From an uncultured Bacilli bacterium (GTDB lineage Bacteria > Bacillota_I > Bacilli_A > RF39 > UBA660): a stretch of 64,000 bases of DNA. Both the position numbers and the translations under genes were made by a program. Below the pieces are notes generated by a model. That model saw only the letters and a list, made by a program, of their open reading frames with translations. It did not search any database and was not told the DNA's origin. This document shows positions 12,905 through 39,067 of the stretch, piece by piece; the first letter of the stretch is position 1, and each line of letters begins with the position of its first letter. The stretch lies in NCBI GenBank assembly GCA_947630575.1, contig CANRIB010000004.1:3027-67026 (forward strand), in the 5' to 3' direction.

Positions 12905-12944
12905 TATGATTGATAATAAATCAATTATAAAGAAGGGAAGATTA

Positions 12945-14324
12945 ATGAAGGTAGAGAAGTTAAGTAAAGGAAAGAGTAAGAAAATTATATTAGCTATAAC
13001 AATAATAGTATTAGCAATAGGAATAATATATATAACAAATAGCAAAGCAAAATATCAAGTAACCAAAAGTGTGCAAATAGTTAATGGAGTAATAAATTAT
13101 TCTAGAGCAGATTTTAGTTTGTTAGGAGTGTATCAGCAACATGAAAAGAGTAGTAGTACTTATGATAGTGTAAATAATGTTCCTACGTCTGGTTATGTAT
13201 TAAATGAAAATAAAACATATTGTACAATAGGCTCAACAAAATATGAGGGAAAAACAAATTATAATAAACAAGGAATAACAATAAATTATGCTGGAGGTAG
13301 TGTAACATTTGGAGGAGTAAAAACTGCCAATACAAAATGTTATTTGTATTTTGATATTACTGATAATATTCCACCAGCAGAACGTGTTACTCAATTAGGT
13401 TTAACAGTAAGCCAATCGGGATGTCCAACTTATCCAACTCCGACAATAAGTTCAGCAGAAAGTTCTGCTACATTATTTTGTAAAGGTCAAGACGACGATG
13501 GAGATACATATTATTTTAGAGGGAAAGCAGATAAGAATTGGGTAAAGATAGGAAATACATATTGGCGAATCATCCGAATAAATGGAGATGGAACAATAAG
13601 ATTAATATATAATGGAACAAGTGCAGTCACGACAGGAGTATCAACTCAATATAAAACTGGAGCTTTTAATTCTATTTTTGGTGATAATGCCTACGTAGGA
13701 TTAAAATATACGATAGGTGTAAGAAATGGATTTAATACTCCATCAGATATGTTTAATACATTAAATACATTTTACAATGAGTATTTTGGAAGTGGTAAGT
13801 CTTTAGTATCATATGCAAATAAATTAGACTCAAGTGCGGGATTTTGTGGAGACAGAACTAGTAATACAGATTATTTAGCTCAAACAACAAATAATACAGG
13901 CGGAACTGGAGCAAACGAAACATACTATGGAGGTAGACTAAGATTACTTAATTCAAAGAAACCAACATTTAAATGTCCAGATAAAACTAATGATTTGTAT
14001 ACAAAAACAGGAGCAACACAAGGAAATAAGTCATTAACCAATTCAATAGGTTTAATGACAGTGGATGAAGCAATGTATGCCGGAGGTTTTGGAGGACAAA
14101 ATAACGATGGTTATTGGTTATATACAAATCAAAGCTATTGGCTTATGTCTCCGTCTGGCTTTGGTGGTGGTGCTGCTAACATGTGCGTTTTGTATTCGGA
14201 TGGTACTCTCGGCAACTATAGTGTTAGCCTTGCGCATGGTGTGCGACCTGTAATAAATTTAAAATCAAATACTATATTTACAGGAAATGGAACTACGAGT
14301 AGTCCATTTGTAGTGCAATTATAA
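12945..14324 (+). CDS. Membrane-anchored surface protein, paralog A of a 3-member family (C-terminal lectin-like YW..SP...GVRPV domain)
   Basis: Start chosen by homology to the paralog C N-terminus (MKVEKLSKG.. vs MEFKKLERN..; shared AKYQVTKS(V/A)QIVNGVINY). Shared motifs: YYFRG, YWRIIRINGDGTIRLIY, AGFCGDR, FKC, GLMTVDEAMYAGG, YWLMSP, GVRPVINLK. Confidence 0.8.
   Translation: MKVEKLSKGKSKKIILAITIIVLAIGIIYITNSKAKYQVTKSVQIVNGVINYSRADFSLLGVYQQHEKSSSTYDSVNNVPTSGYVLNENKTYCTIGSTKYEGKTNYNKQGITINYAGGSVTFGGVKTANTKCYLYFDITDNIPPAERVTQLGLTVSQSGCPTYPTPTISSAESSATLFCKGQDDDGDTYYFRGKADKNWVKIGNTYWRIIRINGDGTIRLIYNGTSAVTTGVSTQYKTGAFNSIFGDNAYVGLKYTIGVRNGFNTPSDMFNTLNTFYNEYFGSGKSLVSYANKLDSSAGFCGDRTSNTDYLAQTTNNTGGTGANETYYGGRLRLLNSKKPTFKCPDKTNDLYTKTGATQGNKSLTNSIGLMTVDEAMYAGGFGGQNNDGYWLYTNQSYWLMSPSGFGGGAANMCVLYSDGTLGNYSVSLAHGVRPVINLKSNTIFTGNGTTSSPFVVQL
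14136..14252 (+). other. G+C-rich variable-region-like block in paralog A
   Basis: Local G+C is far above the flanks. Occupies the same position (YW.MSP to GVRPV) as the blocks in paralogs B and C. Confidence 0.45.
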
Positions 14325-15254: not shown

Positions 15255-15941
15255 TTACATAGCAAATATAATTATAATACACATTGTATTGTGTAACATG
15301 TGAATTAAAAAAGATGAATAGATATTGTCTGTTTCATAAAATGTTTTAGCAAAAAAGAATCCTAATGCTCCATAAGGAATAATAAATAAAAATTCTAATA
15401 AATCAAATCTGGCGATATGAGCTAAGCCAAAAATTATGGCAGTGAATAAAGAAAAAGTGTACCATTTGTCAAAAGCATTTTTGAAGCTCGCTCTAAAAGT
15501 AATTTCTTCAATTAATGGTCCCATAAAAATCATACTAATGATATTACTAAAGGGATATTTTATAAGTAAATTACGATTTAGGGTTTCATTAGTTGGGATA
15601 TTTCCAACGATGGTATTAATAATAATGTTACTTACCATCATAATACCAAGACCACAGAGCCAATTTTTTAAGGCAAGGGAAGTGTTTTCTTTTTTATAGT
15701 TTTTAAAATCATTTATTAGACATTTATGATATATAAGGCCTAATATTACAAAAAGAAGAGTATATGTTCCTAATTGAGCTAATGTAGCAACTACTTTATT
15801 AGAGCTTTCATAATAATCTCCAAAAAGAAAAGCTCCAAGACTGGCGATAATAATATATAAGAAGATAGTGCCAAATCCTTGTAAAAAAGCTAGAAATTTA
15901 TCTTTCATGTTATCAACTCTATTCTTTAATAAATATATCAT
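15255..15941 (-). CDS. CPBP-family intramembrane metalloprotease (CAAX protease/Abi-like)
   Basis: Motifs EEITFR, FGLAH and HMLHN in a polytopic membrane protein. Confidence 0.8.
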   Translation of the reverse strand: MIYLLKNRVDNMKDKFLAFLQGFGTIFLYIIIASLGAFLFGDYYESSNKVVATLAQLGTYTLLFVILGLIYHKCLINDFKNYKKENTSLALKNWLCGLGIMMVSNIIINTIVGNIPTNETLNRNLLIKYPFSNIISMIFMGPLIEEITFRASFKNAFDKWYTFSLFTAIIFGLAHIARFDLLEFLFIIPYGALGFFFAKTFYETDNIYSSFLIHMLHNTMCIIIIFAM

Positions 15942-16020
15942 AAATAGAGATATTTTTCAATTTATTTTCAGTATAGAATAGTAAAGTTAAGATAAAGTGA
16001 TGGTTATTTTAATTAAAGTG

Positions 16021-16049
16021 TTGATATTTTTAAAAAAATTAGGTATAAT
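16021..16049 (+). promoter_or_regulatory. Promoter TTGATA-17-TATAAT ahead of the pilin-like cluster
   Basis: Read directly. An AGGAGG RBS precedes the first ORF. Confidence 0.55.
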
Positions 16050-16087
16050 AATGTACAGATAAAATAAAAAAGGAGGAATAAATTTAG

Positions 16088-16357
16088 ATGAAAGAGGCTA
16101 CTGGTGAGTTAAATATGACAGTTGTTACCGTAGTGGCAATTGCTGCGGTTGCTGCATTCTTTTATGCATTTGTATGGCCTGGAATTAGAAAGAGTATAGA
16201 ACAAAGTACTTATTGTAATATGGCAAATTGTTCTTCTGATTGGAAGACTTGTACAGCTGAGAAAGATGATGGTACAACATGGACAGGAAGCTGTGAATCT
16301 TACTTTAAGAAACAACAAGAAACTACAAATGGTAATGGTGGAACTACTCCATCATAA
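16088..16357 (+). CDS. Small Cys-containing pilin-like protein (MKEATG leader + hydrophobic helix)
   Basis: 89 aa with an AGGAGG RBS. N-terminus MKEATGELN followed by a roughly 22-aa hydrophobic segment. Paralog of the next ORF. 4 Cys. Confidence 0.6.
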   Translation: MKEATGELNMTVVTVVAIAAVAAFFYAFVWPGIRKSIEQSTYCNMANCSSDWKTCTAEKDDGTTWTGSCESYFKKQQETTNGNGGTTPS

Positions 16358-16371
16358 TAGGAGGTTAGAAT

Positions 16372-16629
16372 ATGAAAGAGGCTACAGGTGAGTTAAATGT
16401 AATGGTTATAGTGGCTATTATAGTGGCAATGTTAGCCTTTTTTTTCTTTGGTTTTATATGGCCAAGAATTAATGAGAATTTTAGGCATAGTTCTAGTTGT
16501 GATGATGCGATTTGTATTTGTGAAGATAAAGATGACACGGGTAAATGTCGAACTAAAGTAGGCGAAGTAATGGAGTGTCATATTAAGGGAAATGAAAGCA
16601 AAACAATTATGTGCCCTTGGGAAGGCTAA
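16372..16629 (+). CDS. Small Cys-rich pilin-like protein, paralog of 16088
   Basis: 85 aa with the identical MKEATGELN start, a hydrophobic helix, and 6 Cys in the 45-aa tail. Confidence 0.6.
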   Translation: MKEATGELNVMVIVAIIVAMLAFFFFGFIWPRINENFRHSSSCDDAICICEDKDDTGKCRTKVGEVMECHIKGNESKTIMCPWEG

Positions 16630-16643
16630 TTGAAGGTGATTAG

Positions 16644-17165
16644 ATGAAAGAAGCTATAGGTGGTATATCTCTTTTTAATATAGTAATAGTTCTTATTTTA
16701 CTTTTTACAGGATATATTAGTTTATCAATTAATTATTCTAAGGCATATAATGTTAAAAATGAAGTTTTAAATGTTATTAGAAATCAGGGTGGTGTTTGTA
16801 CTGCAGATGGGGTAGCAACTGGTGATATTTGTTATAATTTTAAAGAACAAATTACAGATTATTTTAAAGAAGCTAGTTATAGAGCTACTGGAGATTGTGG
16901 CAGTGATTGGATTGGTTATACTAGAACGGGTGATTTATTATCACGAGGGGCTAAAAATGCTGCGTTTTGTGTTAAAGGAATAAAAGTTAATGCCAATTCA
17001 GAGCTTCCTAATGCACTATATTATCAAGTGAGAATATTTTATCAACTTGATTTGCCAATAATTAATAATATTTTTAATTTTTCAATTTTAGGTGAAACAA
17101 CGAGGGTTTATCAGCCTAATGAGTGTGATACTAGAAGTGCAAATTATTATTGGTGTGAAGGGTGA
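16644..17165 (+). CDS. TadE-like pseudopilin candidate
   Basis: 173 aa. MKEAIGG leader, hydrophobic helix, then YSKAYNVKNEV, homologous to the next ORF. 6 Cys. Confidence 0.5.
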   Translation: MKEAIGGISLFNIVIVLILLFTGYISLSINYSKAYNVKNEVLNVIRNQGGVCTADGVATGDICYNFKEQITDYFKEASYRATGDCGSDWIGYTRTGDLLSRGAKNAAFCVKGIKVNANSELPNALYYQVRIFYQLDLPIINNIFNFSILGETTRVYQPNECDTRSANYYWCEG

Positions 17166-17169
17166 TTAA

Positions 17170-17907
17170 ATGAGAACTACTATTGGTCAAACTTGGGTTA
17201 TGCAGTTAATGATTGTGTTTATTCTTTTGTTTGTGGCTTATATTGTTTTAATTCTTAATTATTCGCGAACAATTAAAGTTAAAAATGAAATGATAACATT
17301 AATAGAGAAGTATGAAGGATTAAATGATTATTCAATTGAGTCCATAAATGGTTATTTGAATAGTAATGGTTATGTTGCGACTGGTGTTTGTGTTACTAAA
17401 GAAGCTGAAGGTGTTTATGGTGGAACTGTAGATTCAGTTAAACTTGAAAAAGCTAAAGCTGGGAAAAAATATAGTTATTGTTTAAAGAAATATCAGGGAA
17501 CTAGTATAACTAATTATTATCAAGTTGCACTTTTTTATAAATTTAATTTACCAGTTTTAGGTAATGTTTCTGGTTTTACAGTTAAAGGAACAACTAATAA
17601 TTTTAAATCATTTGATGATGATTTATATTGTAATAATATTACCGGTACTTGTAATTCTTCATCATCAAGACCTAGTACAGATACAGGAGAGAGCATGTAC
17701 ACAGTAACCTTTAATCTTAATGGAGGCTATGGTTCTATTCCTAGTCAACAAGTAAGGACGGGTGGAACTGTTAGGATGCCGGCAAATCCAACTATGGCGG
17801 GGCATACGTTTAATTGTTGGGGATATTATAACAATGGACGTTTGACTACTTTTGATGTTAATACAAGAGTTGATAGAGATTTAGAATTAGTGGCAATATG
17901 GAAATAA
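17170..17907 (+). CDS. TadE/TadG-like pseudopilin candidate with C-terminal Listeria-Bacteroides (Flg_new) repeat
   Basis: 245 aa. The MRTTIGQTWVMQLMIVFILL N-terminus resembles RGQTLILFIILIPL of ORF 22184. C-terminus YTVTFNLNGGYG...GHTFNCWGYY...DLELVAIWK. Confidence 0.5.
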   Translation: MRTTIGQTWVMQLMIVFILLFVAYIVLILNYSRTIKVKNEMITLIEKYEGLNDYSIESINGYLNSNGYVATGVCVTKEAEGVYGGTVDSVKLEKAKAGKKYSYCLKKYQGTSITNYYQVALFYKFNLPVLGNVSGFTVKGTTNNFKSFDDDLYCNNITGTCNSSSSRPSTDTGESMYTVTFNLNGGYGSIPSQQVRTGGTVRMPANPTMAGHTFNCWGYYNNGRLTTFDVNTRVDRDLELVAIWK

Positions 17908-17934
17908 AGAAAGAAAAGTTTTTGGAGGGTTAAA

Positions 17935-18936
17935 ATGAATGTTATAGTGTCAAATAAATATCAAAATATGCTTGCAACATTAGATATTGATATAATTAAA
18001 AGTATTAATGGAGAGTTTGAAGTTGAAGATTTAGTTAGTCAATTTACAAATTTTTACTTTAATAAAATGATTATTGATGTAACGGCAATAAAGGGTTATC
18101 AAAATATAAAGAATATTCAAAAGTTATCAGTAAATTTTGATACGAGTAAGATAATTTTATTATTGGATGATTCCGCGATGGTTAACAGTGGGGCTTATTT
18201 ATCCCAATTAGTTTCGATGGGAATATATAATTTTACAAGAAATATAAATGCGGTTAAGTTTTTAATTGATAATCCTAATTCATATAAAGATGTTGCCCAA
18301 TATCATAATTTAAATGGAAATAGTACAGATAATGATAATCCAGTAAATTTTGATACTTTTGCTGGTTCGGGAAGTGGAGGTATGAGGATAGTTGGCTTTA
18401 AAAATGTAACTCTTCATGCAGGGGCTACTTCTTTGGTTTATATGCTAAAAAAACATTTGGAAGTTGCATATAATGTTATTGCAATTGAGGTAGATGGAGA
18501 AGACTTTAAATATTTTAATGATAAAAGCTTAAAGACCACAACTGCTTTAGATTTATCTTTTAATATTGCTAATAATCCGGATGCAGAAGTTATATTAATT
18601 GATTTAAATGAATCTAATCAAGAAAGTTTATGTAATGAAGTGGTTTATTTAATTGAACCAGGCTTAATTAAACTTAATAAATTGATTAGAAATGATAGAG
18701 AAGCTTTTGAAAAGTTAAAAGATAAAATGATAGTGTTAAATAAAAGTATTTTAACTAATAAAGATATTAGTGATTTTGAAAAAGAAACTAATAGTAAAGT
18801 CTTTTATAATATACCTTATGTTGATGATAAGAAAGAGCATGAACAAGTGTTGGAAGACTTTTTGGTAGCTTTAGGTTTTTCAAGATTAAATAATGGTGGG
18901 GGAAATAAAACTAAACTTTTTAATATATTTAAATAA
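17935..18936 (+). CDS. TadZ/CpaE-like protein: receiver-like N-domain plus ParA/MinD-like domain with degenerate Walker A
   Basis: 333 aa. The C-terminal half has a MinD-like layout, but HAGATS replaces KGGVGKT. Context is the pilin-like genes. Confidence 0.45.
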   Translation: MNVIVSNKYQNMLATLDIDIIKSINGEFEVEDLVSQFTNFYFNKMIIDVTAIKGYQNIKNIQKLSVNFDTSKIILLLDDSAMVNSGAYLSQLVSMGIYNFTRNINAVKFLIDNPNSYKDVAQYHNLNGNSTDNDNPVNFDTFAGSGSGGMRIVGFKNVTLHAGATSLVYMLKKHLEVAYNVIAIEVDGEDFKYFNDKSLKTTTALDLSFNIANNPDAEVILIDLNESNQESLCNEVVYLIEPGLIKLNKLIRNDREAFEKLKDKMIVLNKSILTNKDISDFEKETNSKVFYNIPYVDDKKEHEQVLEDFLVALGFSRLNNGGGNKTKLFNIFK

Positions 18937-18961
18937 AATCACTTTGAAGAGTGATTTTTTA
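18937..18961 (+). terminator. Intrinsic terminator ending the pilin-like cluster
   Basis: AATCACT-TTGAAG-AGTGATT followed by TTTTT. Confidence 0.7.
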
Positions 18962-19012
18962 GTTTTAAATTTTATTAATTGCTGATATAATATAACAAAA
19001 GGAGAATACTGA

Positions 19013-19780
19013 ATGAAAAAAGTAGTAAGTTTTGTTGTTTTAGTATTAGTGATGAGTAGTATTATAATATTAACTATTTATACTTTGAATAATAAAGGGG
19101 TTAAAGAAGATGTTCAGGGAAAAGTTGGTAGAAAAATAGAAAATGTTACTACTAATATGACTGATAATAGTTTAAATGAGATATATAATGTGTATTTAAA
19201 TAATCAAAGACATAAATTAAAATTAGAATATAGTATAAATAAAAATAAAGAAAATAATATGATAAGTGGAACTTTACTAATTTATATTGATGGGGTTAGA
19301 ATAATTAGAGAAAATGTGATTAATGATATTCAGGCAGAGGATATAGAGAGTTTATTTTCGAATGTTGATGTTGATAATTATGTTAGAATAGATATGAATA
19401 ATATCCAAATATTAAAAGAAAATAATCAGGAATATTTGTTGATAAGAATGGGTGTTTTAGATAAAGATAAAGTTATAGAAAAATATTATTTATTTGATGA
19501 TAAAGGGGAATCTTTAATTGAAGATGGGTTATTAATTAGAAATGATCAAGAATATATTGTTAATAAAGATGGAAAGGATTTAAATGTTTTTTATGAAAGT
19601 TTTGAGGGACAACTTAGAGTAAAAAGAGAAGGAAATATATTTTATGCTTTAATATTAGAGGAAAAAGAAGAAAATTTGGTTTTAAATGAATATAAGTATT
19701 ATTTTAAAAATGATAAATTAAATAAGGAACTTATTACGACCCATGAAAATGTTAAAATTAAGGATAAAGAATCTAAATAA
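19013..19780 (+). CDS. Membrane-anchored hypothetical protein
   Basis: 255 aa with an N-terminal TM/signal anchor and a GGAGAA RBS. No family recognised. Confidence 0.55.
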   Translation: MKKVVSFVVLVLVMSSIIILTIYTLNNKGVKEDVQGKVGRKIENVTTNMTDNSLNEIYNVYLNNQRHKLKLEYSINKNKENNMISGTLLIYIDGVRIIRENVINDIQAEDIESLFSNVDVDNYVRIDMNNIQILKENNQEYLLIRMGVLDKDKVIEKYYLFDDKGESLIEDGLLIRNDQEYIVNKDGKDLNVFYESFEGQLRVKREGNIFYALILEEKEENLVLNEYKYYFKNDKLNKELITTHENVKIKDKESK

Positions 19781-21600: not shown

Positions 21601-21622
21601 TATTATGATAAGGGTGAAAGTT

Positions 21623-21829
21623 ATGAAGAGAGATGGCCAAGCATTAGTAGAGTATATTTTAATAATTGCACTTATTAGTGTTATTGCTATTGCGCTCGTT
21701 AATTACTTTGGGGGTTATCTAAAGGATGCGATTACCAAGACATCATGTAGTTTAGTTGATGAGGTATATACTAAAGGAGATAAGCCCGGAGAGGGTAAAT
21801 GTGAGGAAAAAGAGGAAACTCAGGAATAA
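21623..21829 (+). CDS. flp: Flp-family type IVc pilin
   Basis: MKRDGQALVEYILIIALISVIAI carries the G/xxxxEY Flp motif. Start at 21623 with a GGGTGA RBS (ORF track starts at 21605). Confidence 0.75.
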   Translation: MKRDGQALVEYILIIALISVIAIALVNYFGGYLKDAITKTSCSLVDEVYTKGDKPGEGKCEEKEETQE

Positions 21830-21852
21830 CTTTTACTTAAAGGGGTAATAAA

Positions 21853-22191
21853 ATGAGAAAAAAAGGGCAGGCACTAGTAGAATTTATAATAATATTACCA
21901 ATATTTTTAATGCTGTTTTTGGGTGTTATAGATTTAGGAAAAATATTTTATAATAAAATTATTTTGGAAAGTGCCATAAATGATGTAGTTTCTTTATATC
22001 AGGATGGTAAAAGTGAAGAAGAAATAAAAAATAAATTAGATTTAGATGATTCTAAGTTGGAAATAAATGATGATGGAAGTTATAAAGAAATTAAGATAGA
22101 AAAAGAAGTAGAGATTATTACACCGGGACTTAATTTAGTTTTAAATAGTCCTTATAAATTAGAGATTAAGAGGAGTATTATAAATGATTAG
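21853..22191 (+). CDS. TadE-like pseudopilin
   Basis: KKGQALVEFIIILPIFLMLFLGVIDLG N-terminus typical of TadE. Confidence 0.7.
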   Translation: MRKKGQALVEFIIILPIFLMLFLGVIDLGKIFYNKIILESAINDVVSLYQDGKSEEEIKNKLDLDDSKLEINDDGSYKEIKIEKEVEIITPGLNLVLNSPYKLEIKRSIIND

Positions 22192-22555
22192 TAATAAAAG
22201 AGGACAGACTTTAATACTATTTATTATTTTAATACCATTAATCTTGGGAGTTATGGCTGTGGTTGTTGATGTGGGGTTAATAGTTAGTAAAAGTAGTAGT
22301 TTAAAAGAAACAACAAGATTAGTTATTAAAGATAGTTTAAATAATGATTTAGGAGAAGAGGAAATTAAAGAATTATTTGTTAAGAATAAAATAGATGTTG
22401 ATAATTTAGAATTAGAATTAGAAAATGAGGAAATTCATGTTAAGAATAAAATAGAGATAGATAGTATTTTTGGGGCAATTATTGGGCTTAAAAAATACAC
22501 GATTAAAATAGATATTAAGGGGTATAAAGATAATAATAAAATAGTTATAGATTAG
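22184..22555 (+). CDS. TadE/TadG-like pilus assembly protein
   Basis: KRGQTLILFIILIPLILGVMAVVVDVG N-terminus (TadG-like N-terminal motif). Confidence 0.6.
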   Translation: MISNKRGQTLILFIILIPLILGVMAVVVDVGLIVSKSSSLKETTRLVIKDSLNNDLGEEEIKELFVKNKIDVDNLELELENEEIHVKNKIEIDSIFGAIIGLKKYTIKIDIKGYKDNNKIVID

Positions 22556-22564
22556 GGTGAAGCT

Positions 22565-23329
22565 ATGAATAATAAAGGAATGTCAATATGTATATCATCG
22601 GCTAAAGGTGGAGTTGGTAAGACTATTACAACGCTTAATCTTGCTGGTTTATATGAAGTATTAGATAAAAAAGTTTTAGTGATTGATTTTGATTTAGCTA
22701 GTGGAGGAATTGCAACTGCTTTAAATATTGAACCACAAAAAAGTGTTTATAATTTTGTTGATGATTATAATAATAACCGTTATAAAGATTTTAAAGATTA
22801 TGTTATTAGGTATGATGATAAAATAGATATTTTAGCTAGTCCTAAAGATCCAAGACAAGCAGGTAAAATAAATCCTAAATATGTAGAATTAATACTTGAT
22901 AAAGCAGTATTTAATTATGATATTGTGTTAGTGGATACTAGTCATGTACTTAATGATTTTAATATATTTACGATGGATTTAGTAGATAAAATTATTTTTA
23001 TGGTTACTAATGACCCAATGGATTTAAAGAATATGAGAAGTTTAATTGGGATATTAAAAGATGTTAATTATAATAATTATAAAGTGGTTTTAAATGAAAG
23101 TGTCCATCCATTTAAGAAATATTTTAGTTTGTATGATATTAAAAATATTATTAGAAATAATATAGATTATGTTATATCTAAAGATTTTTATATTAAAAAT
23201 ATTGATAGTATTATTATGAGTGGAAAGATTATTACTTTAGATAGTAAAGTGCCTTCGGTTTTTAATAAAGATTACACAACCTTAATGCAATTAATAACAG
23301 ATATGTATAAAGAGGAGGTGCAAGAATGA
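22565..23329 (+). CDS. TadZ/CpaE-type ParA-like ATPase (no receiver domain)
   Basis: Walker A SAKGGVGKT. Position between the pseudopilins and cpaF. Confidence 0.8.
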   Translation: MNNKGMSICISSAKGGVGKTITTLNLAGLYEVLDKKVLVIDFDLASGGIATALNIEPQKSVYNFVDDYNNNRYKDFKDYVIRYDDKIDILASPKDPRQAGKINPKYVELILDKAVFNYDIVLVDTSHVLNDFNIFTMDLVDKIIFMVTNDPMDLKNMRSLIGILKDVNYNNYKVVLNESVHPFKKYFSLYDIKNIIRNNIDYVISKDFYIKNIDSIIMSGKIITLDSKVPSVFNKDYTTLMQLITDMYKEEVQE

Positions 23330-24771
23330 AACAGAGTTTAAGAGATGCATTTGATATAGAAATTAAAGAGAAAGAAACTAAGATTTTAAATGATTATGAA
23401 ATATTTAAAGATAAAAAATTACTGGATAAGTTAAGAACAGAGATAGTAGAAAATTTAATTGATAATGAAATGCCTAAGGATATTAGTTTAAATGAATGGA
23501 TTAATAATGAGATAGATAAAACAGTTGAAGGTTATGATTTATCTAATTTAGAAAGAAGTCATTTATTTAATTTAATTGATAATGAAATAAATGGATATGG
23601 GCCGATATCTGAGCTTTTAAATAGTAAAAATGTAACGGAAATAATGGTTAATTCTCCTAATGAAATATATATTGAAATAGATGGAGTATTAACGAAAGAT
23701 GAAAGTGTATCATTTATTAATGATGAACATATTATTAGAACAGTTCAAAGATTAATACAACCTTTGGGAAGGACTATTGATGCTTCTAATCCGATGGTTG
23801 ATTCAAGACTTATGGATGGGTCAAGAATTAATGCGGTAATACCTCCTTTATCAACTAAAGGGCCGGTGGTGACAATTAGAAAATTTAAAGAGTCTATGAG
23901 TAATATTGATGAATTAATTAGAATTGGAACTTTAACTCCTTATATGGCAAGATTTTTGGATGCGGCAGTAAGAGGAAAATGTAATATATTAATATGTGGT
24001 GGTACTGGTTCTGGTAAGACTACTTTACTTAATATTTTAAGTGGTTTTATTGGGGATAATGAAAGAATTATTACAATTGAAGATGCAGCAGAATTAAAAT
24101 TAAAGCAAAACCATGTTATATCTTTGGAAACAAAAATGCTTAATTATGAGCAAAAAAATGAAATTACAATTCGGGATTTAGTTATTAATTCTCTTAGGAT
24201 GCGGCCAGATCGAATAATTGTGGGAGAAGTAAGAGGTAAAGAAGCTTTTGATATGTTGCAAGCAATGAATACAGGACATGATGGATCTCTTACGACTATG
24301 CATGCGAATGGTCCTCAAGATGCTTTAAATAGACTGGAAACAATGGTTTTAATGGGAGGGTTAGAAATTCCTATTAAGGCTATTAGAGAATATATTATTA
24401 GTGCGATAGATTTAGTTGTTAATATTGAACGGATGAGTGATGGAAGAAGAAAAGTTACAAATATTGCAGAGTTAGAAGATTTTACAGATGGTGAAATTAA
24501 ATTAAAAGAAATATTTGCTTTTAAACAAAAGGGACTTACAGAAACAGGGGAAGTTGATGGAGAATTTATTTTGTATGATGGAGTTCCAAAAGTATATAAA
24601 AAGATAAAAGCGCGGGGAATTTTAGATATTGAAGATATTTTTTATCCAGATAAAGTAGTTAAAGAACAACATAATTTTATTAAAAATGGAATTAAAGAAG
24701 AAGAACAAAATGATAAACCAAAAATAATGTATTATCGGGGAAAATATGAGGGAATTGGACCTAGAGAATAG
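23326..24771 (+). CDS. tadA: CpaF/TadA secretion ATPase
   Basis: Walker A GGTGSGKTT, TIEDAAEL, RMRPDRIIVGEVRG and GHDGSLTTMHAN motifs. Confidence 0.92.
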   Translation: MKQSLRDAFDIEIKEKETKILNDYEIFKDKKLLDKLRTEIVENLIDNEMPKDISLNEWINNEIDKTVEGYDLSNLERSHLFNLIDNEINGYGPISELLNSKNVTEIMVNSPNEIYIEIDGVLTKDESVSFINDEHIIRTVQRLIQPLGRTIDASNPMVDSRLMDGSRINAVIPPLSTKGPVVTIRKFKESMSNIDELIRIGTLTPYMARFLDAAVRGKCNILICGGTGSGKTTLLNILSGFIGDNERIITIEDAAELKLKQNHVISLETKMLNYEQKNEITIRDLVINSLRMRPDRIIVGEVRGKEAFDMLQAMNTGHDGSLTTMHANGPQDALNRLETMVLMGGLEIPIKAIREYIISAIDLVVNIERMSDGRRKVTNIAELEDFTDGEIKLKEIFAFKQKGLTETGEVDGEFILYDGVPKVYKKIKARGILDIEDIFYPDKVVKEQHNFIKNGIKEEEQNDKPKIMYYRGKYEGIGPRE

Positions 24772-24779
24772 GAGATATT

Positions 24780-25778
24780 ATGACAGGAGTAAGACTAGTA
24801 CAAATATTAATTATGGTTATTATTTTAGGAGTAGTTATATATTTACTTCGTCTTTCTCGTGCGGTAAAGTTAGAAAAAAGAATTGGTAAATTTGCTATAG
24901 CAAATGAAGAAATTGATAGTGAATTATCTTTAATTGATAAGGGTTTGGAATTTATTAAAAAGATAATAAAATTATTTTCAAAAATATTAAAAAAATCAGT
25001 AGTATTAACTAAATATGGAGAAAAGTATAATAAATATATTTCTTTTAAAAATAAAGATAAAATAGAGGGGATAGACTATGTATCTTTGAAGTTTTTGATA
25101 GCTATAATAGTATTAGGATTAAGTGCTATTACGGCTTTATTTCATAAAATTAATTTAAGTTTTCCTGTAGTGATATTAATATTTTTAATTAGTTTTTTTG
25201 GAATTGATATTTATTTCTATATAGAATTTAGGAAGAGAAGAAAAAAAATTGAAGATGATTTATTAAAAGCTATTATTATTATGAATAATGCTTTTCAAAG
25301 TGGTCGCAATATTATGCAGGCAATAGAAGTTGTTAAAAATGAGCTTGATGGTCCTATTCAAGATGAGTTTAAAAAAATATATTTAGATATTACTTATGGG
25401 TTAGATTTAGAGCTTGTTTTTGATAGATTTTATGAAAGAGTAAAATTAGAAGATGCTAAGTATATTAGTTCATCTCTTAGTTTACTTAATAAAACTGGGG
25501 GAGATATAATAAAAGTGTTTTCTTTAATTGAAAAGTCAATTTTTGATAAAAAGAATTTAAAAAATGAGCTTAATAGTTTAACGGCTTCTAGTCAATTTGT
25601 GTTTAAAATGTTGATTTGTTTACCAGTTTTATTAATAGGGGTAATATTTATTTTAAATCCTACATATTTTACACCTTTATTTACGACACCTTTAGGTATT
25701 TTAGCTTTAGTATTTACAATTTTATTATATATTCTTTATATTTTAGTTATTAAAAGAGTTTTGGAGGTCGAGTTATGA
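24780..25778 (+). CDS. tadB: TadB-like platform protein (T2SSF domain)
   Basis: Polytopic membrane protein following cpaF, with overlapping stop/start. Confidence 0.8.
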   Translation: MTGVRLVQILIMVIILGVVIYLLRLSRAVKLEKRIGKFAIANEEIDSELSLIDKGLEFIKKIIKLFSKILKKSVVLTKYGEKYNKYISFKNKDKIEGIDYVSLKFLIAIIVLGLSAITALFHKINLSFPVVILIFLISFFGIDIYFYIEFRKRRKKIEDDLLKAIIIMNNAFQSGRNIMQAIEVVKNELDGPIQDEFKKIYLDITYGLDLELVFDRFYERVKLEDAKYISSSLSLLNKTGGDIIKVFSLIEKSIFDKKNLKNELNSLTASSQFVFKMLICLPVLLIGVIFILNPTYFTPLFTTPLGILALVFTILLYILYILVIKRVLEVEL

Positions 25779-26473
25779 AAAGTAGTTTAAGTTACAAGAT
25801 TTATCCTAAAACAACGATTAAAAGAATAGAAAAGAAAGTAAAATTATTGGGGGTAAGTACAGATTTTTCAGTGGTATTTTTCTTAAATGGAAGATTATTA
25901 TTATGTATATTAGTATTTATATTAAGTTTAGTTTTCTTTAAATATGGTTTTATTATTGCACCAATTTTAACTTTATTAGTTTATTTGGGAATGGAAAAAA
26001 TATGTTTAGATTATGAAATAAAAAAGAGAGGAAAAAGATTAGAAAAACAAGCTTTATTCTTTATGGAAGTTTTAGTTTTAACTTTAGAGGGAGGAAGAAA
26101 TTTAGAAAATGCTTTAAATTTAACTATTGCGAATATTGATTCAGAATTAGCTTTAGAATTTAAGCAAGTTATAGAAGAAGTGCATTTGGGTAAGAGTTTA
26201 AATGAGAGTTTAGAAGCTATGAAAAAAAGAATTCCAAGTGAAGTTATAAATAATACAATTCTTAATATGATACAGGCTAATACTTATGGAACAAATATAA
26301 CTGTTTCTATGTATAATCAAATTGAATTTTTGAGAAATAAACAATTATTGGATGTTAAAGCCGAAATTGCTAAATTACCAACAAAAGTAAGTGTGATAAG
26401 TGTTTTATTTTTTGTACCAATCATGTTACTTATTATTTTAGCGCCGGTTTTAATTAAACTTATTAGTAATTAG
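25775..26473 (+). CDS. tadC: TadC-like platform protein (T2SSF domain)
   Basis: Polytopic membrane protein, coupled to tadB. Confidence 0.8.
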   Translation: MKSSLSYKIYPKTTIKRIEKKVKLLGVSTDFSVVFFLNGRLLLCILVFILSLVFFKYGFIIAPILTLLVYLGMEKICLDYEIKKRGKRLEKQALFFMEVLVLTLEGGRNLENALNLTIANIDSELALEFKQVIEEVHLGKSLNESLEAMKKRIPSEVINNTILNMIQANTYGTNITVSMYNQIEFLRNKQLLDVKAEIAKLPTKVSVISVLFFVPIMLLIILAPVLIKLISN

Positions 26474-29515: not shown

Positions 29516-29650
29516 GATATCCTCCTAAATATATCTTAACAAAAATTACGTATATAGAAGAGACGTTTATATATTCGGTACAGAAATGCAAAAAAAGTAT
29601 ATACAATTAAAAAAAATTAAGTTATAATGTATAAAAATAGGAGTGATTAT

Positions 29651-31849
29651 ATGACTAAAGAAACTAAAAGATTATTTATTGTTGAAGGAATTATTTTGCT
29701 GATTGTTTTAACTATTGGTATTGGTTATGCTTTTTTATCAACAAGTGGTAAACAAGAATTAGCCAATACTTTTACAGCAGGTTGTTTAAGTATAACAATA
29801 GAAGAAGAGGGAAGAGCAATAGATTTAGAAAATGCTTATCCCATAACAGATATAGAAGGATTAGAACAAGATGGATATACTTTTAAAATAAAGAATAATT
29901 GTAGTAATGATACAAATTATCAAATTAATTTAGAATCATTAAGTAATCCAACAGCAGATACAACATTAAAAGCCGATTATGTAAGAGTATCCCTTTCAAG
30001 TGATACAATGGATAATTTAATAACAACATTAAAAGAAAATGATGTAGCAACATATCATTCAGAAAATGCTTATGTATCTTATAATCTTTATAGTGGAATA
30101 TTAAAAGGAAGTGCAAGTAAATCATTTACTTTAAAAGAATGGGTAGAATATAATACAACCAAAGAAGAAGGAGCAAGTAAAGAATATAAATCACAGATAA
30201 ATGTAGTAAGTGATACAAGAGTAGAAGTAACACCAAAACCAGAGATAACATTTGCTTATAGTGGAAATACGATAAAAGGAACAATAGCAGGTAGTGCAAC
30301 AGATATAACATATTGTGAAACAAAAGATAATAGATGTGAACCAAAACAAAATGGAGAAATACAAGAACAAACAACCTCAATAACATTAAATGAAGAATCA
30401 AAAACAAAAGAAGTAACAACCAAATTAGGAGTATTAAATGTATATCAAGATTATAAAAGAATGATATGTGCAAAATTGGATAATGGAAAGACAATATGCA
30501 GTAATCCAGATACAGGAAGTGGGACACCAGATTTTAGCATTAATAGTGATTACGCTGATAATGATTTCAAAGTATGTACATATAAGGGAATTAGTGTTAA
30601 CACAGGATATGCTCCAGAAGAAATGTGCCAGTTAGTTTTTGAAATAACTAGAAATGGTAGTTATTATTATCAAGATGGTTTAATGGAATATGAACTTAGA
30701 ATAAGTTCTGATTCTAAGCGTGTAGGTTTAGCTATTTGGGATGAAGAAAAACAAATATGTACTTACAATGGAAATGAAATCAAAACTTGGGGTGAACAAA
30801 GGATTAACCAAGAAAATTGCTTGTTTGCTTATGAACAAAATGGTAAATATATTACTTTTAATCTAATAGATGAAATGAAAGAGACTTATAATGCAGATAA
30901 TATAAATTTTTTAGGAGCGGGTACTTTAAGTACTGCTGTTGGAAAAACCGGAATATATGAAACAAAAGATGAAGAAGGAACAAGTTATTATTATAGAGGA
31001 GCAGTAGAAAATAATTATGTAGAGTTTGCAGGATTTTATTGGCGAATAATTAGGATAAATGGAAATGGTTCCATACGTTTAATTTATAGTGGAAAAAAAG
31101 ATGAAGTAAATGAAATAGGTAAAGAAACAATATTAAAAAATGGATATAAGGATACAAATGGTTATAAAATGATAACATTAAAAGATGAAAGAAAATATGG
31201 TACCTATAATGGAGATGTTAACGATAATGCCTATGTAGGATATATGTATGGAACACCTGGTTCAAATAATTATACTGATGCTCATGAAAATATAAATGAA
31301 AGTAATGTTAAGAAAGAATTAGATAATTGGTATATAGCAAATTTAAAACAAGTAGAAGATAAATTAGATACACAAGCCGGCTTTTGTAATGATAGAAGTT
31401 TAGCAGAAGGATATGAAAATGTTGGATATGGAACGAAAGAAACATATTATGGAGCATCGGATAGAATAAAAAATAAATATCAGCCAACCTTAAAATGCGT
31501 TAATAAAGATAATGATTATTTCACATGGAAGGGACATGCCAATACTGGTAATAAAGTATTAACCAATCCGATAGGATTAATCACAGCCGATGAAGCAATG
31601 TATGCTGGAGCGAATACTGTTCCGAATGATACTTATTATTTATATACAGGTCAGAATTATTGGACAATGTCTCCGTATGACTTTAACGGCAGCTATGCTG
31701 GCGTGTTCTGTGTGAGTTCGTTTGGCTACCTCGGCTACTACTACGTGGACAGCACGAACATCGGTGTGCGCCCAGTAGTAAATGTGGACCCTAATAAAGT
31801 AAGTATTTCTGGAACTGGTACTATAGATAATCCTTATCTTTTCTCTTAA
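29651..31849 (+). CDS. Surface protein paralog B: SipW-type signal peptide/TasA-like N-region plus the family core and C-terminal lectin-like domain
   Basis: Start MTKETKRL with a TAGGAG RBS (ORF track starts at 29627). GYAFLSTSGKQELANTFTAGCLSI resembles the SipW-cognate signal class. Core motifs: YYYRG, FYWRIIRINGNGSIRLIY, AGFCNDR, LKC, GLITADEAMYAG, YWTMSP, GVRPVVNV. Confidence 0.8.
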   Translation: MTKETKRLFIVEGIILLIVLTIGIGYAFLSTSGKQELANTFTAGCLSITIEEEGRAIDLENAYPITDIEGLEQDGYTFKIKNNCSNDTNYQINLESLSNPTADTTLKADYVRVSLSSDTMDNLITTLKENDVATYHSENAYVSYNLYSGILKGSASKSFTLKEWVEYNTTKEEGASKEYKSQINVVSDTRVEVTPKPEITFAYSGNTIKGTIAGSATDITYCETKDNRCEPKQNGEIQEQTTSITLNEESKTKEVTTKLGVLNVYQDYKRMICAKLDNGKTICSNPDTGSGTPDFSINSDYADNDFKVCTYKGISVNTGYAPEEMCQLVFEITRNGSYYYQDGLMEYELRISSDSKRVGLAIWDEEKQICTYNGNEIKTWGEQRINQENCLFAYEQNGKYITFNLIDEMKETYNADNINFLGAGTLSTAVGKTGIYETKDEEGTSYYYRGAVENNYVEFAGFYWRIIRINGNGSIRLIYSGKKDEVNEIGKETILKNGYKDTNGYKMITLKDERKYGTYNGDVNDNAYVGYMYGTPGSNNYTDAHENINESNVKKELDNWYIANLKQVEDKLDTQAGFCNDRSLAEGYENVGYGTKETYYGASDRIKNKYQPTLKCVNKDNDYFTWKGHANTGNKVLTNPIGLITADEAMYAGANTVPNDTYYLYTGQNYWTMSPYDFNGSYAGVFCVSSFGYLGYYYVDSTNIGVRPVVNVDPNKVSISGTGTIDNPYLFS
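31658..31777 (+). other. G+C-rich variable-region-like block in paralog B
   Basis: About 52% G+C by hand count in an otherwise AT-rich gene. Scaffold nucleotides are identical to the block in paralog C. Differences are concentrated in NNC/NNT codons. Confidence 0.55.
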
Positions 31850-37922: not shown

Positions 37923-38384
37923 TTGGTTGATAAGTTAGTTGGAAAGCTAATAAGGGGTAAAATAGTTGAAATAACGATAGTACTAGTTATGGTTATTGTG
38001 TCAATTCCTGTTTGGAATACTTTTGGTAAAAAGATAAGTAATGCCAATGTGATAGATATTGACCAGTTTAATTTAGCATTTGCCATTTTAGATAATGGTA
38101 ATAGTGATACTCTTACTGTTACTAATGATTATAGGTTAAATAAGAGTTTTAGAATAGTTTTAAGAGTTAATAGAGAAGTTAATATTGATAATTCTAGTAT
38201 TATTGTTAATGATAAAAGTTATAAGTTAGCTGATTTTGAACAATATAAAAAAGGAGCATATTATTATTTTAATATTGTTACAGATTATGTTGTTGCGGAA
38301 ACATTGAAGTATGATGTAACACCTAATTTAGATGGCAATATTATTAACTATGCATATATTTTTGAAGAAAATATTAATTTTTAA
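37923..38384 (+). CDS. Membrane-anchored/secreted hypothetical protein
   Basis: TTG start 8 nt after an AAGGGGG RBS. N-terminal hydrophobic helix. Confidence 0.5.
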   Translation: MVDKLVGKLIRGKIVEITIVLVMVIVSIPVWNTFGKKISNANVIDIDQFNLAFAILDNGNSDTLTVTNDYRLNKSFRIVLRVNREVNIDNSSIIVNDKSYKLADFEQYKKGAYYYFNIVTDYVVAETLKYDVTPNLDGNIINYAYIFEENINF

Positions 38385-38452
38385 ATAAAGTGATAAAATA
38401 CTATTGTAATTTATCACTTTTTTATGGTATTATTATAATATGGTGATAGTAT

Positions 38453-39067
38453 ATGAGAGTAAAGGATATTATCAAGAAACAAACCACGATTATTGCTATT
38501 GCAGTAGTCTTAGTTGCTATGACGGCAATGGGTGCTAGTTATGCCATATTTTTTGACATTAAGAAAAATCAAGATGATCAAGTTATAACAGCTGGAACAC
38601 TTAAGGTTACTATTTCTGGGGTTAGTAAATTGACTGAACCAAAAGTGTTAGATAATGATTCTGGTCTTAAGGAAACTGGAATTAGTTATACTATAGAAAA
38701 TAAAGATTCTGATGGTAATAGTAATTTACCTAATAATTATACTTTGTATATTTATGCTGATGATGCTAATACTATGGATTTATCTAAAGTTAAAGTTGCG
38801 ACGAATGGTGAGGCTAAAGTTTTTAATGCATTGGATGTGAGTCCTATAACTATTTCAAGTACTGATGATAGTGGATGTACATCTACTAGTGATGGGAAAT
38901 GTAAAGGATATAAAATTGATTCTGGAACTTTACAGACTGGTGATACAGGTAAGGTTACTAAATCAGTCAAAGTTTGGATTGATGAGTCATTAGTTACTGA
39001 TGAAATTGAAAGTAAAACTTTGAGTTTAAAGCTTTATATTGTAAGTGAAGTTGCAGAGCAAAGTTAA
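38453..39067 (+). CDS. Secreted protein with SipW-cognate-type signal peptide (TasA/camelysin-like)
   Basis: AMGASYAIFFDIKKNQDDQVITAGTLKV matches the AxF...(N)xxTAGTL pattern of that signal class. Confidence 0.55.
   Translation: MRVKDIIKKQTTIIAIAVVLVAMTAMGASYAIFFDIKKNQDDQVITAGTLKVTISGVSKLTEPKVLDNDSGLKETGISYTIENKDSDGNSNLPNNYTLYIYADDANTMDLSKVKVATNGEAKVFNALDVSPITISSTDDSGCTSTSDGKCKGYKIDSGTLQTGDTGKVTKSVKVWIDESLVTDEIESKTLSLKLYIVSEVAEQS

Follow-up and report, generated by a model that had tools for sequence, protein, structure and literature searches.

A five-gene cluster with an N-terminal signature on four of its proteins

We analysed a 64-kb stretch of contig CANRIB010000004.1 from an uncultured Bacilli bacterium (the window; GC content ~27%, sporulation genes present) and focused on five genes, p1–p5, at positions 16088–18936 (Table 1), which an earlier note on this DNA had described as an accessory pilin-like cluster. 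The five open reading frames (ORFs) are co-directional and separated by gaps of 4–27 nt, in agreement with the tight packing that had been reported. The promoter, which had been rated good, is near-consensus and the highest scoring in the region; it lies 39 nt 5′ of the p1 start codon, and a Shine–Dalgarno sequence, AGGAGG, is found at 16072–16077 ahead of p1. The cluster had also been said to end at a clean terminator. A hairpin followed by a U-run does overlap the p5 stop codon; however, it is AT-rich and of moderate strength (dG -8.5 kcal/mol, z -2.2, with 10 of 200 shuffled sequences folding equally well), and it was missed by a consensus terminator scan that demands at least three G–C pairs. 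The p1–p5 genes probably form a single transcription unit.

Table 1. Genes of the p1–p5 cluster and its predicted transcription signals (window coordinates)
Feature	Position	Strand	Description
sigma-70-type promoter TTGATA-17-TATAAT	16021–16049	+	11/12 matches; top site in 15800–19100
p1	16088–16357	+	89-aa ORF, major-pilin-like
p2	16372–16629	+	85-aa ORF, second major-pilin-like protein
p3	16644–17165	+	173-aa ORF, minor-pilin-like
p4	17170–17907	+	245-aa ORF, modular minor-pilin-like
p5	17935–18936	+	333-aa ORF, cytoplasmic two-domain protein
intrinsic-terminator-like hairpin + U-run	18935–18966 (hairpin 18935–18958)	+	10-bp stem, 4-nt loop

A scan of species-representative genomes for relatives of p5 returned at least 179 genomes, from which 80 loci (L001–L080) were fetched. 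These loci form two groups: the window lineage (L001–L021; p5 81–88% identical) and another clade (L022–L080; p5 54–65% identical). Their genomes carry labels such as 'Bacilli bacterium', 'Mycoplasma sp. CAG:776', 'Candidatus Caccenecus' and 'uncultured Tenericutes', that is, uncultured gut Bacilli. The order p1–p2–p3–p4–p5 is identical in all 80 fetched species-level genomes, and because it recurs in every one of them the clustering is far beyond chance. The layout in the window lineage is a metallophosphoesterase gene (-), an Rce1-like protease gene (-), p1–p5 and a DUF2140-like gene. When p1–p5 were searched against Pfam and NCBIfam, the sole matches were a Flg_new repeat on p4 and a sub-threshold CbiA match on p5.

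The small proteins p1 and p2

Both p1 and p2 begin with MKEATGELN and carry four and six cysteines, respectively, in their tails, as the earlier note had recorded. In p1, the leader MKEATG, followed by ELN, leads into a hydrophobic helix of ~26 residues and a variable tail; over p1 and p2 the helix spans 24–26 residues. The two proteins are paralogues (hhalign 99.9%) in a family of 146 genes encoding 74–160 aa, within which the p2 set measures 75–92 aa. Among 142 homologues, the first 12 residues, MKEATGELNxTV, are near-invariant (K2 99%, E3 95%, A4 93%, T5 89%, G6 97%, E7 96%, L8 96% and N9 98%). Most positions among residues 1–33 of p1 show conservation of 90% or more over 53 homologues, and the Cys-containing tail is variable. 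A constant helix with a variable tail is, by analogy, the pattern of type IV pilins.

In size and in having a single hydrophobic helix, p1 and p2 resemble Flp pilins (~50–90 aa, helix of at least ~20 residues). Neither matches the Flp/Fap profile PF04964 at E<=1, whereas the window's own flp product matches at 1.4e-5. Each family of the cluster was also aligned by hhalign with the window's Flp, TadE, TadZ, TadB and TadC, with a sensitivity limited by canonical alignments of six sequences each; against Flp, the probabilities were 3.8% for p1 and 1.2% for p2. The Flp motif G/xxxxEY is absent from both, which have Glu at +1 and neither Glu nor Tyr at +5/+6, whereas the window's Flp reads G/QALVEY. 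This difference between the leaders of the cluster and that of flp had been noticed earlier, and the sequences bear it out.

The larger, modular proteins p3 and p4

The N-termini of p3 (MKEAIGG) and p4 (MRTTIGQ), together with a shared NYS(K/R)..(N/K)VKNE segment, are as previously described, and the two proteins are again paralogues (hhalign 99.9%). Over 145 family members, the N-terminus follows M-(R/K)-E-x-I-G-G/S-T-W, and most members have Gly at residue 6 (85%), fewer Ser (11%) or Glu (3%); the Gly at this position stands at 97% in the p1/p2 family. An AlphaFold2 model of p3 built from 46 sequences (pLDDT 83.7, pTM 0.75) contains a long N-terminal helix at residues 5–48, a second helix at 62–77 and a sheet of five strands, with a small alpha/beta head; C85 and C109 are invariant among the 46 sequences. 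The predicted structure is a pilin-style lollipop and resembles type IV pilins in its overall outline. An N-terminal helix joined to a small beta-rich domain is also the layout of pseudopilins, and in 41 of 43 distant loci the gene sits in a pilus-gene neighbourhood, as detailed below.

The earlier note had likened p3 and p4 to TadE/TadF pseudopilins. The likeness holds for the layout and for the modelled lollipop shape, but not for family membership: neither protein matches the TadE or Tad profiles (PF07811, PF13400) at E<=1, whereas the window's tadE product matches at 2e-12, and hhalign against the two TadE-like families gave 1.8–6.3%. Profile searches for Flp, TadE or class III signal membership, which had been put forward as a check, returned no Pfam or NCBIfam match; for Flp, TadE and TadZ membership taken together, hhalign probabilities were below 10% and no sequence in the Protein Data Bank (PDB) was matched.

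The p4 protein consists of a p3-type module (residues ~1–155) with a grafted Flg_new repeat (residues 177–242; PF09479, E 3.5e-11), which confirms the repeat that had been recognised earlier. In more than 90% of family members p4 is ~160 aa long and lacks this tail. The Flg_new tail occurs in four species only (the window, L013, L016 and L018), and L004 carries a different tail; a role of this lineage-specific part as a tip adhesin is plausible. Elsewhere in the family, a p3 paralogue (L036:7979–9523) is fused to a Peptidase_M15 domain of the cell-wall peptidase type (E 4e-10), and a DUF5411 protein encoded in another locus (L038:3744–4703) has a C-terminal tail like that of p4 in L013. Extra domains have apparently been swapped among proteins with similar N-termini, namely the p3 paralogue, p4 and DUF5411. 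Because the tails include Flg_new, Peptidase_M15 and the tail shared between L038 and L013, the C-termini of p3, p4 and DUF5411 are placed outside the cell. The added domains would, by analogy, follow the logic of modular pilins.

Two other assignments were considered and rejected. A double-glycine bacteriocin leader was discarded for MKEAIGG, since it falls short in length and is wrongly spaced, and since p1 and p2 have a single Gly; a VirB8-like NTF2 fold was discarded for p3, as no Foldseek match of that kind was obtained.

The leaders of p1–p4

A class III signal has Gly at -1, a hydrophobic residue at +1 and Glu at +5. In p1–p4, position +1 is Glu or Gly and position +5 is Thr, Phe or Met, and the PF04021 profile has no match in p1–p5. 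The same kind of N-terminus is found on DUF5411, a protein of the motor module described below, which begins with M(K/R)E..WG in 38 of 39 cases.

Divergent to p1 and separated from it by a shared 146-bp intergenic region is a gene for an Rce1-like (CPBP, PF02517) intramembrane protease (15255–15941, -). It lies beside p1 in 20 of 21 window-lineage genomes and is also found 5′ of the whole system in L027. Judged from its family and position, the protease could be a candidate leader processor, or the association could be mere synteny.

The two-domain protein p5

The AlphaFold2 model of p5 (pLDDT 72.6) comprises a flavodoxin-like N-domain (residues 1–116), a disordered linker and a MinD/ParA-fold C-domain (residues 150–315). 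The modelled combination of a receiver-like N-domain and a MinD/ParA-like C-domain is that of TadZ/CpaE. Foldseek matched the model to IcmF (flavodoxin-like plus G-domain), HypB, MinD, ParA and BcsQ with E-values of 1e-6 to 1e-3, and TadZ was not among the top 50 matches. The P-loop of p5 in the window is HAGATS and has no lysine; across 61 diverse representatives (30–53% identical to the window protein) it reads x[HGS]AG[AS][TS][TS]L and never GK[ST], so that the deviant Walker A motif of TadZ/CpaE, KGGxGK[ST], is absent from p5 and from 61 of 61 representatives. Both the degenerate Walker A and the fusion of a receiver-like domain to a MinD/ParA-like domain had been proposed in the earlier note, and the model and the 61 relatives agree with them.

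Five columns only are invariant among the 61 relatives: M1, G26, D48, E185 and D223. Receiver domains carry their phospho-acceptor Asp at the end of strand 3. In the flavodoxin-like domain of p5, this position is taken by D48, and no acidic pair follows strand 1. From their positions, E185 and D223 would correspond in MinD to the acidic residues of Walker A′ and Walker B.

Sequence comparisons gave no family for p5. Its only Pfam match, CbiA at E 0.009, is below the cut-off; none of the 61 representatives scored above threshold in Pfam, where isolated matches at E 0.004–0.009 involved one member each; and neither the single sequence nor profiles of 41 and 61 sequences found TadZ or anything else relevant in the PDB. 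With the window's TadZ, hhalign gave 0.8%. The search with p5 returned 5717 related protein clusters, and the family has 559 clusters at 50% identity; among the matches listed, all homologues are named 'hypothetical protein', and nearly all come from uncultured gut Bacilli. As modelled, p5 is TadZ-like in architecture but shows no sequence match to TadZ. An origin from a mobile element was rejected, as no p5 relative was found in viral contigs or plasmids and the flanks in relatives contain genes of housekeeping appearance.

Motor genes precede the cluster in distant relatives

In 41 of the 43 other-clade loci with at least 5 kb of upstream sequence, the genes ahead of the cluster are in the order large secreted protein, DUF5411, CpaB-like protein (one or two copies), T2SSE ATPase, 297-aa membrane protein and 262-aa membrane protein, followed by p1–p2–p3–p4–p5. 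The DUF5411 protein matches its profile at E 4e-57. The ATPase matches PF00437 at E 2.6e-28, with VirB11, TadA and TrbB as the top NCBIfam entries, all below their curated cut-offs. It is 27% identical to the TadA of the window, and by hhalign the two ATPases are the sole related pair across the two systems. For the CpaB-like protein, matches were obtained to TIGR03177 (E 2.5e-8) and to RcpC. In size and gene position, the 297-aa and 262-aa polytopic proteins correspond to TadB and TadC, and from reading of the sequences their topology is seemingly alike. An ATPase that may belong to the TadA/CpaF clade is encoded beside the pilin-like genes in these relatives; it is absent from this place in the window and its 21 closest relatives, and in the 17 window-lineage loci that offer 5 kb or more of upstream sequence, this region contains no secretion ATPase gene. 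In one locus only, a gene resembling lactate/malate dehydrogenases (L025:5723–6682) stands between the motor ATPase gene and the first membrane-protein gene.

The association was also assessed from the motor side, using metagenome loci with at least 2.5 kb of sequence 3′ of the 262-aa membrane-protein gene. The p1–p5 module comes next in 46 of these 54 loci, and in the other 8 unrelated genes follow the motor. Because those eight hold the motor alone, motor and module are separable. The motor-only metagenome contigs are not assignable to the lineage of the window. An independent surface-filament system had been offered as an alternative in the earlier note, and the dedicated ATPase, CpaB-like and membrane-protein genes ahead of the module in the distant loci speak for it.

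VirB2-like and VirB4-type genes follow the cluster in relatives

Small two-helix membrane proteins with weak matches to T4SS_pilin (PF18895), referred to here as VirB2-like, are encoded after p5 in 47 of 53 loci, by one to five genes each. Genes for a large polytopic protein, for a TcpE/PrgI-like protein and for a VirB4-like ATPase that is split in two (AAA_10 / TraG P-loop, E 1e-12) lie further downstream in 11 of 35 loci; in the remaining 24 of 35 the VirB2-like genes are followed by housekeeping genes and not by type IV secretion system (T4SS) genes. In very distant relatives, with p5 ~30% identical, the order p1-like, p3-like, p5-like, VirB2-like, VirB6-like, VirB3/PrgI-like, VirB4 is kept, and the p1-like proteins start with MKEASAELS or MKEASGELS. 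The T4SS set is seen in the distant loci L087 and L088; L089 and L091, on short contigs, show the VirB2-like gene only. No relaxase was seen near the VirB-type set in relatives. Family hidden Markov models (HMMs) found no T4SS genes in the window, and none lie within 10 kb of the module in the 21 close relatives.

The VirB4-like ATPase is encoded by two genes of ~190–200 aa and ~580–595 aa (L024:16874–19260; L087:10877–13175). Since close lineages and very distant ones share this split, an assembly error seems less likely than a conserved feature.

The place of the VirB2-like genes is taken in the window lineage by the DUF2140-like gene, which in the window (19013–19780) encodes a membrane protein of 255 aa and has its own promoter-like site (18964–18991). 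It lies 3′ of p5 in all 20 window-lineage loci that extend past p5, and it evolves fast (dN/dS 0.54).

A further family occurs both in the window and near the module in relatives. Three paralogues of large secreted or anchored proteins are encoded at 12906–14324 (+, 472 aa), 29627–31849 (+, 740 aa) and 47425–48831 (-, 468 aa); they share the motifs YWRIIRINGDGTIRLIY and GVRPVINL and match DUF6273 weakly (E 0.003). Members of the same family lie amid the VirB2-like genes 3′ of p5 in at least eight distant loci and beside the module in several close relatives. They may be a cargo or partner adhesin, or, given the high copy number, the link may be due to chance.

The cluster as a probable part of a divergent Tad-like system

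These observations suggest that 16088–18936 is probably the pilin-plus-scaffold module of a separate, uncharacterised and very divergent Tad-like (type IV filament) system of uncultured, low-GC gut Bacilli, the motor of which would be located elsewhere in this genome. When the motor of the relatives is counted, the parts correspond to those of a Tad system: two platform-sized proteins, two Flp-sized, two TadE/F-sized, one TadZ-like and one CpaB-like. In such a system, p1 and p2 would be the small major-pilin-like filament subunits and p3 and p4 larger minor pilins, with Flg_new of p4 as a binding module at or on the filament. The four proteins would be inserted into the membrane through their N-terminal helices, and a prepilin-type peptidase would cut off the short leader M(K/R)E..G. 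The VirB11/TadA-type ATPase, the two polytopic membrane proteins and the CpaB-like protein would then extract and polymerise the subunits, such that p1–p4 would form a filament. Because its P-loop lysine is absent, p5 is most likely an assembly or localisation hub and not an ATPase. In the window lineage, the module would have been split from the motor upstream and from the VirB2-like genes downstream, and would be expressed from its own promoter.

In 21 species-level genomes of the window lineage, each of the five ORFs has remained intact, and dN/dS there is 0.31 for p1, 0.38 for p2, 0.22 for p3, 0.32 for p4 and 0.087 for p5, values that are rough because dS is ~1.1. The p1–p5 genes are therefore under purifying selection in a lineage without adjacent partners, and from the intact ORFs and dN/dS values of 0.09–0.38 it follows that the module is in use although its partners are not adjacent.

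Several results weigh against this assignment. Family HMMs of all partners detected no motor genes of the module's system in the 64-kb window, and none lie closer than 10 kb to the module in any of the 21 close relatives; in the very distant relatives, there is no T2SSE ATPase within 6 kb of the module. The dS value cited above is close to saturation. The 297-aa and 262-aa proteins have no T2SSF match at E<=10, give less than 3% in hhalign and match nothing in the PDB in profile searches. Kinship of p1/p2 with Flp, of p3/p4 with TadE and of p5 with TadZ is undetectable by sequence. A Foldseek search of the PDB with the p3 model gave a best E-value of 0.3 and no pilin in the top 50, although this test of the p3 head is weakened by the fact that most solved pilins lack the N-terminal helix. 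The leaders of p1–p4 contain one basic residue, with two to four after the helix, the reverse of canonical Flp and TadE in the window, and the Gly at position 6 is replaced by Ser or Glu in ~14% of p3/p4 proteins. Finally, neither the window nor the fetched loci yielded a gene for a prepilin (A24-type) peptidase. Prepilin peptidase genes are often unlinked to their pilin loci.

Alternative explanations

The genes downstream of p5 raise the alternative that p1–p5 are an accessory module of a relaxase-less monoderm T4SS, with p1–p4 as subunits spanning the membrane or wall and p5 as organiser. The frequency of T4SS_pilin-like genes after p5 (47 of 53 loci) and the TcpE/PrgI-like, large polytopic and split VirB4-like genes of 11 of 35 loci are in its favour, as are the deep conservation of the pairing of p5 with VirB2-like genes, down to ~30% p5 identity and with no T2SSE ATPase nearby, and the peptidoglycan-hydrolase-type M15 domain on one p3 paralogue. 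However, T4SS genes are missing from the window and from 10 kb around the module in its 21 close relatives; housekeeping genes come after the VirB2-like genes in 24 of 35 loci; the N-terminal signature also occurs on DUF5411, which belongs to the ATPase module; and the part-by-part correspondence to a Tad system would be hard to explain. We consider this explanation unlikely on its own, but it is compatible with a divergent Tad-like system and the two are not mutually exclusive. Plasmid R64 provides a known case of a pilus that is coupled to a T4SS (mentioned in PMC12102498). A combined proposal, which we regard as speculative although somewhat less improbable than the accessory role, is that the genes represent a new type IV filament branch coupled, both physically and functionally, to a relaxase-less monoderm T4SS with VirB2-like arrays in genome-reduced gut Bacilli, characterised by a new leader (MKEATG followed by ELN) and a MinD/ParA-fold organiser without the P-loop lysine, and with cell-to-cell contact or the transfer of macromolecules as its task in place of simple adhesion. 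Under this proposal, the leader may be processed by a non-A24 enzyme, for example the adjoining Rce1-like protease.

A second alternative arises from the canonical Gram-positive Tad locus at 21605–26473, which comprises flp, tadE, a second TadE/G-like gene, tadZ, tadA, tadB and tadC (gene callers start flp at 21623, with 68 aa, and not at 21605). The p1–p4 proteins could be accessory subunits of this flp–tadZ–tadA–tadB–tadC machine, with p5 providing the receiver-like domain that its short TadZ lacks. The locus begins 2.7 kb downstream of the module in the window, and the same spacing is found in L001, L016, L017, L018 and L020. The window contains no other T2SSE ATPase, and the module is under purifying selection even though no motor of its own is nearby. 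In addition, the TadZ encoded at 22565 has an intact Walker A (KGGVGKT) and no N-terminal receiver-like domain, as the earlier note had stated. That note had also suggested that the neighbouring Tad machinery might service the module and that TadZ functions were split between p5 and the window's TadZ. Comparison across genomes supports neither suggestion. The arrangement obg followed by canonical flp–tadC is present in 5 of the 12 window-lineage loci with at least 8 kb of downstream sequence, and canonical Tad genes occur within 10 kb in 0 of 59 other-clade loci, so that the co-occurrence check that had been proposed found no steady linkage. The other clade possesses its own ATPase, only distantly related to TadA, and the leaders of p1–p4 lack the G/xxxxE[YF] motif of all three canonical substrates next door. 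The architecture of p5 is family-wide, extending over 559 clusters, and belongs to the other system and not to a local division of TadZ. The canonical flp–tadC locus is probably a separate system from the p1–p5 module, and an accessory role for p1–p4 within it appears improbable, to much the same degree as the T4SS accessory role.

It is also conceivable that p1–p4 are ordinary uncleaved signal-anchored proteins that form no filament, their N-terminus serving as a complex interface or a cytoplasmic tag. The flanking charges unlike the usual prepilin pattern, the substitutions of Gly6 in p3/p4, the missing linked peptidase gene and the lack of a structural match to solved pilins would all fit such proteins. 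We judge this quite improbable, given the near-invariance of MKEATGELN over 142 proteins with fast-evolving tails, the linkage to T2SSE ATPase and CpaB-like genes in 41 of 43 loci and the predicted lollipop shape of p3. Least credible of all is a decaying remnant left after loss of the motor in this lineage, which would account for the absence of motor and VirB2-like partners from the window and the flanks of its 21 close relatives but is at odds with five intact ORFs in 21 genomes, the dN/dS values of 0.09–0.38, the retained near-consensus promoter and the gain of new domains on p4 within the lineage.

Other genes in the window

The products of two small genes at 37923–39067, of 153 and 204 aa, each have an N-terminal anchor or signal and match no Pfam family; the genes adjoin a transposase-like ORF of 351 aa (39275–40330). 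The 204-aa protein has ...GASYAIFFD after its hydrophobic stretch, which we take to resemble SipW-dependent TasA/camelysin-type signals.

Relationship to known systems and implications

The closest comparison is with Tad/Flp systems (type IVc), such as the Bifidobacterium breve locus flp-tadE-tadF-tadZ-tadA-tadB-tadC and the locus at 21605–26473, with which the inventory of parts is shared once the motor of the relatives is included. Both also have small subunits in which a short leader with Gly as its last residue precedes a hydrophobic helix. By contrast, sequence identifies only the motor ATPase and the CpaB-like protein; the leader has a fixed length of six residues (MKEATG, then ELN), with one basic residue and no Glu/Tyr at +5/+6; the tails are Cys-rich; and the TadZ-like protein lacks the P-loop lysine. 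The gene order differs as well, with the pilin-like and TadZ-like genes after the motor, VirB2-like genes following them and no linked prepilin peptidase. By analogy, p1–p5 would act like the Flp/TadE/TadF/TadZ part of a Tad system, yet they are not recognised by the membership tests of any of these families. The structure of TadZ from Eubacterium rectale was reportedly determined by Xu et al. in 2012. Like TadZ/CpaE, p5 is predicted to combine a receiver-like (flavodoxin-fold) N-domain with a MinD/ParA-fold C-domain and is encoded with pilus-assembly genes. It differs in having no sequence match to them even with the 61-sequence profile, in a P-loop of the form [HGS]AG[AS][TS][TS] and not KGGxGK[ST], and in the invariance of D48 (end of strand 3) and of E185 and D223 in the C-domain.

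The grafting of a functional domain onto the C-terminus of a pilin module, here Flg_new, Peptidase_M15 or other tails, recalls PilB and PilC of Streptococcus sanguinis. Those proteins are reportedly modular type IV pilins with a canonical class III signal (Gly-1, Glu+5) and type IVa machinery, and in both of these respects they are unlike p3 and p4.

Three published descriptions bear on the system. A putative new membrane-machinery operon, flagged computationally in Roseburia, Ruminococcus and Eubacterium of the gut, contains a CpaF-type ATPase, PilC, DUF5411, an internalin-like protein and unannotated small genes (PMC9523054; Miller et al. 2022), and this was the only paper found in which DUF5411 is named. 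By its description, the operon shares DUF5411 and a T2SSE-type ATPase, the core of the motor module, with the relatives studied here. It differs in coming from Clostridia, in having a recognisable PilC/GspF and in that no p1–p5, MKEATG leader or TadZ-like protein is described. A relaxase-less MPF-FATA-like T4SS with arrays of VirB2-like genes has been reported in Patescibacteria (PMC12102498), and it is the closest published analogue of the downstream module of the relatives, in which one to five tandem T4SS_pilin-like genes accompany PrgI/TcpE-like, large polytopic and VirB4 genes in hosts that are likewise genome-reduced. It belongs to another phylum, however, and no Tad-like motor or coupling to p1–p5 is described for it; its genes are absent from the window. 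The canonical tad operon of Erysipelotrichales (PMC12786226) represents the other kind of system, the one that lies next to the module in the window.

We think it reasonably likely that p1–p5 belong to a machine of the type IV filament/Tad-like kind, known here from its genes alone, with a previously unrecognised class of subunits and organiser. The case illustrates how adjacency to the canonical Tad locus in a single genome was misleading, and how cross-genome comparison revealed the true companions of the module. The invariant leader could be used to find the substrates of the system, and the modular subunits hint at binding targets through their Flg_new and cell-wall hydrolase domains. In its link to VirB2-like arrays, the system resembles the T4SS that is essential in Patescibacteria. 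If the assignment is correct, a whole surface machine of abundant gut bacteria, represented by 559 clusters of p5 and at least 179 species-level genomes, would be missing from current annotation.

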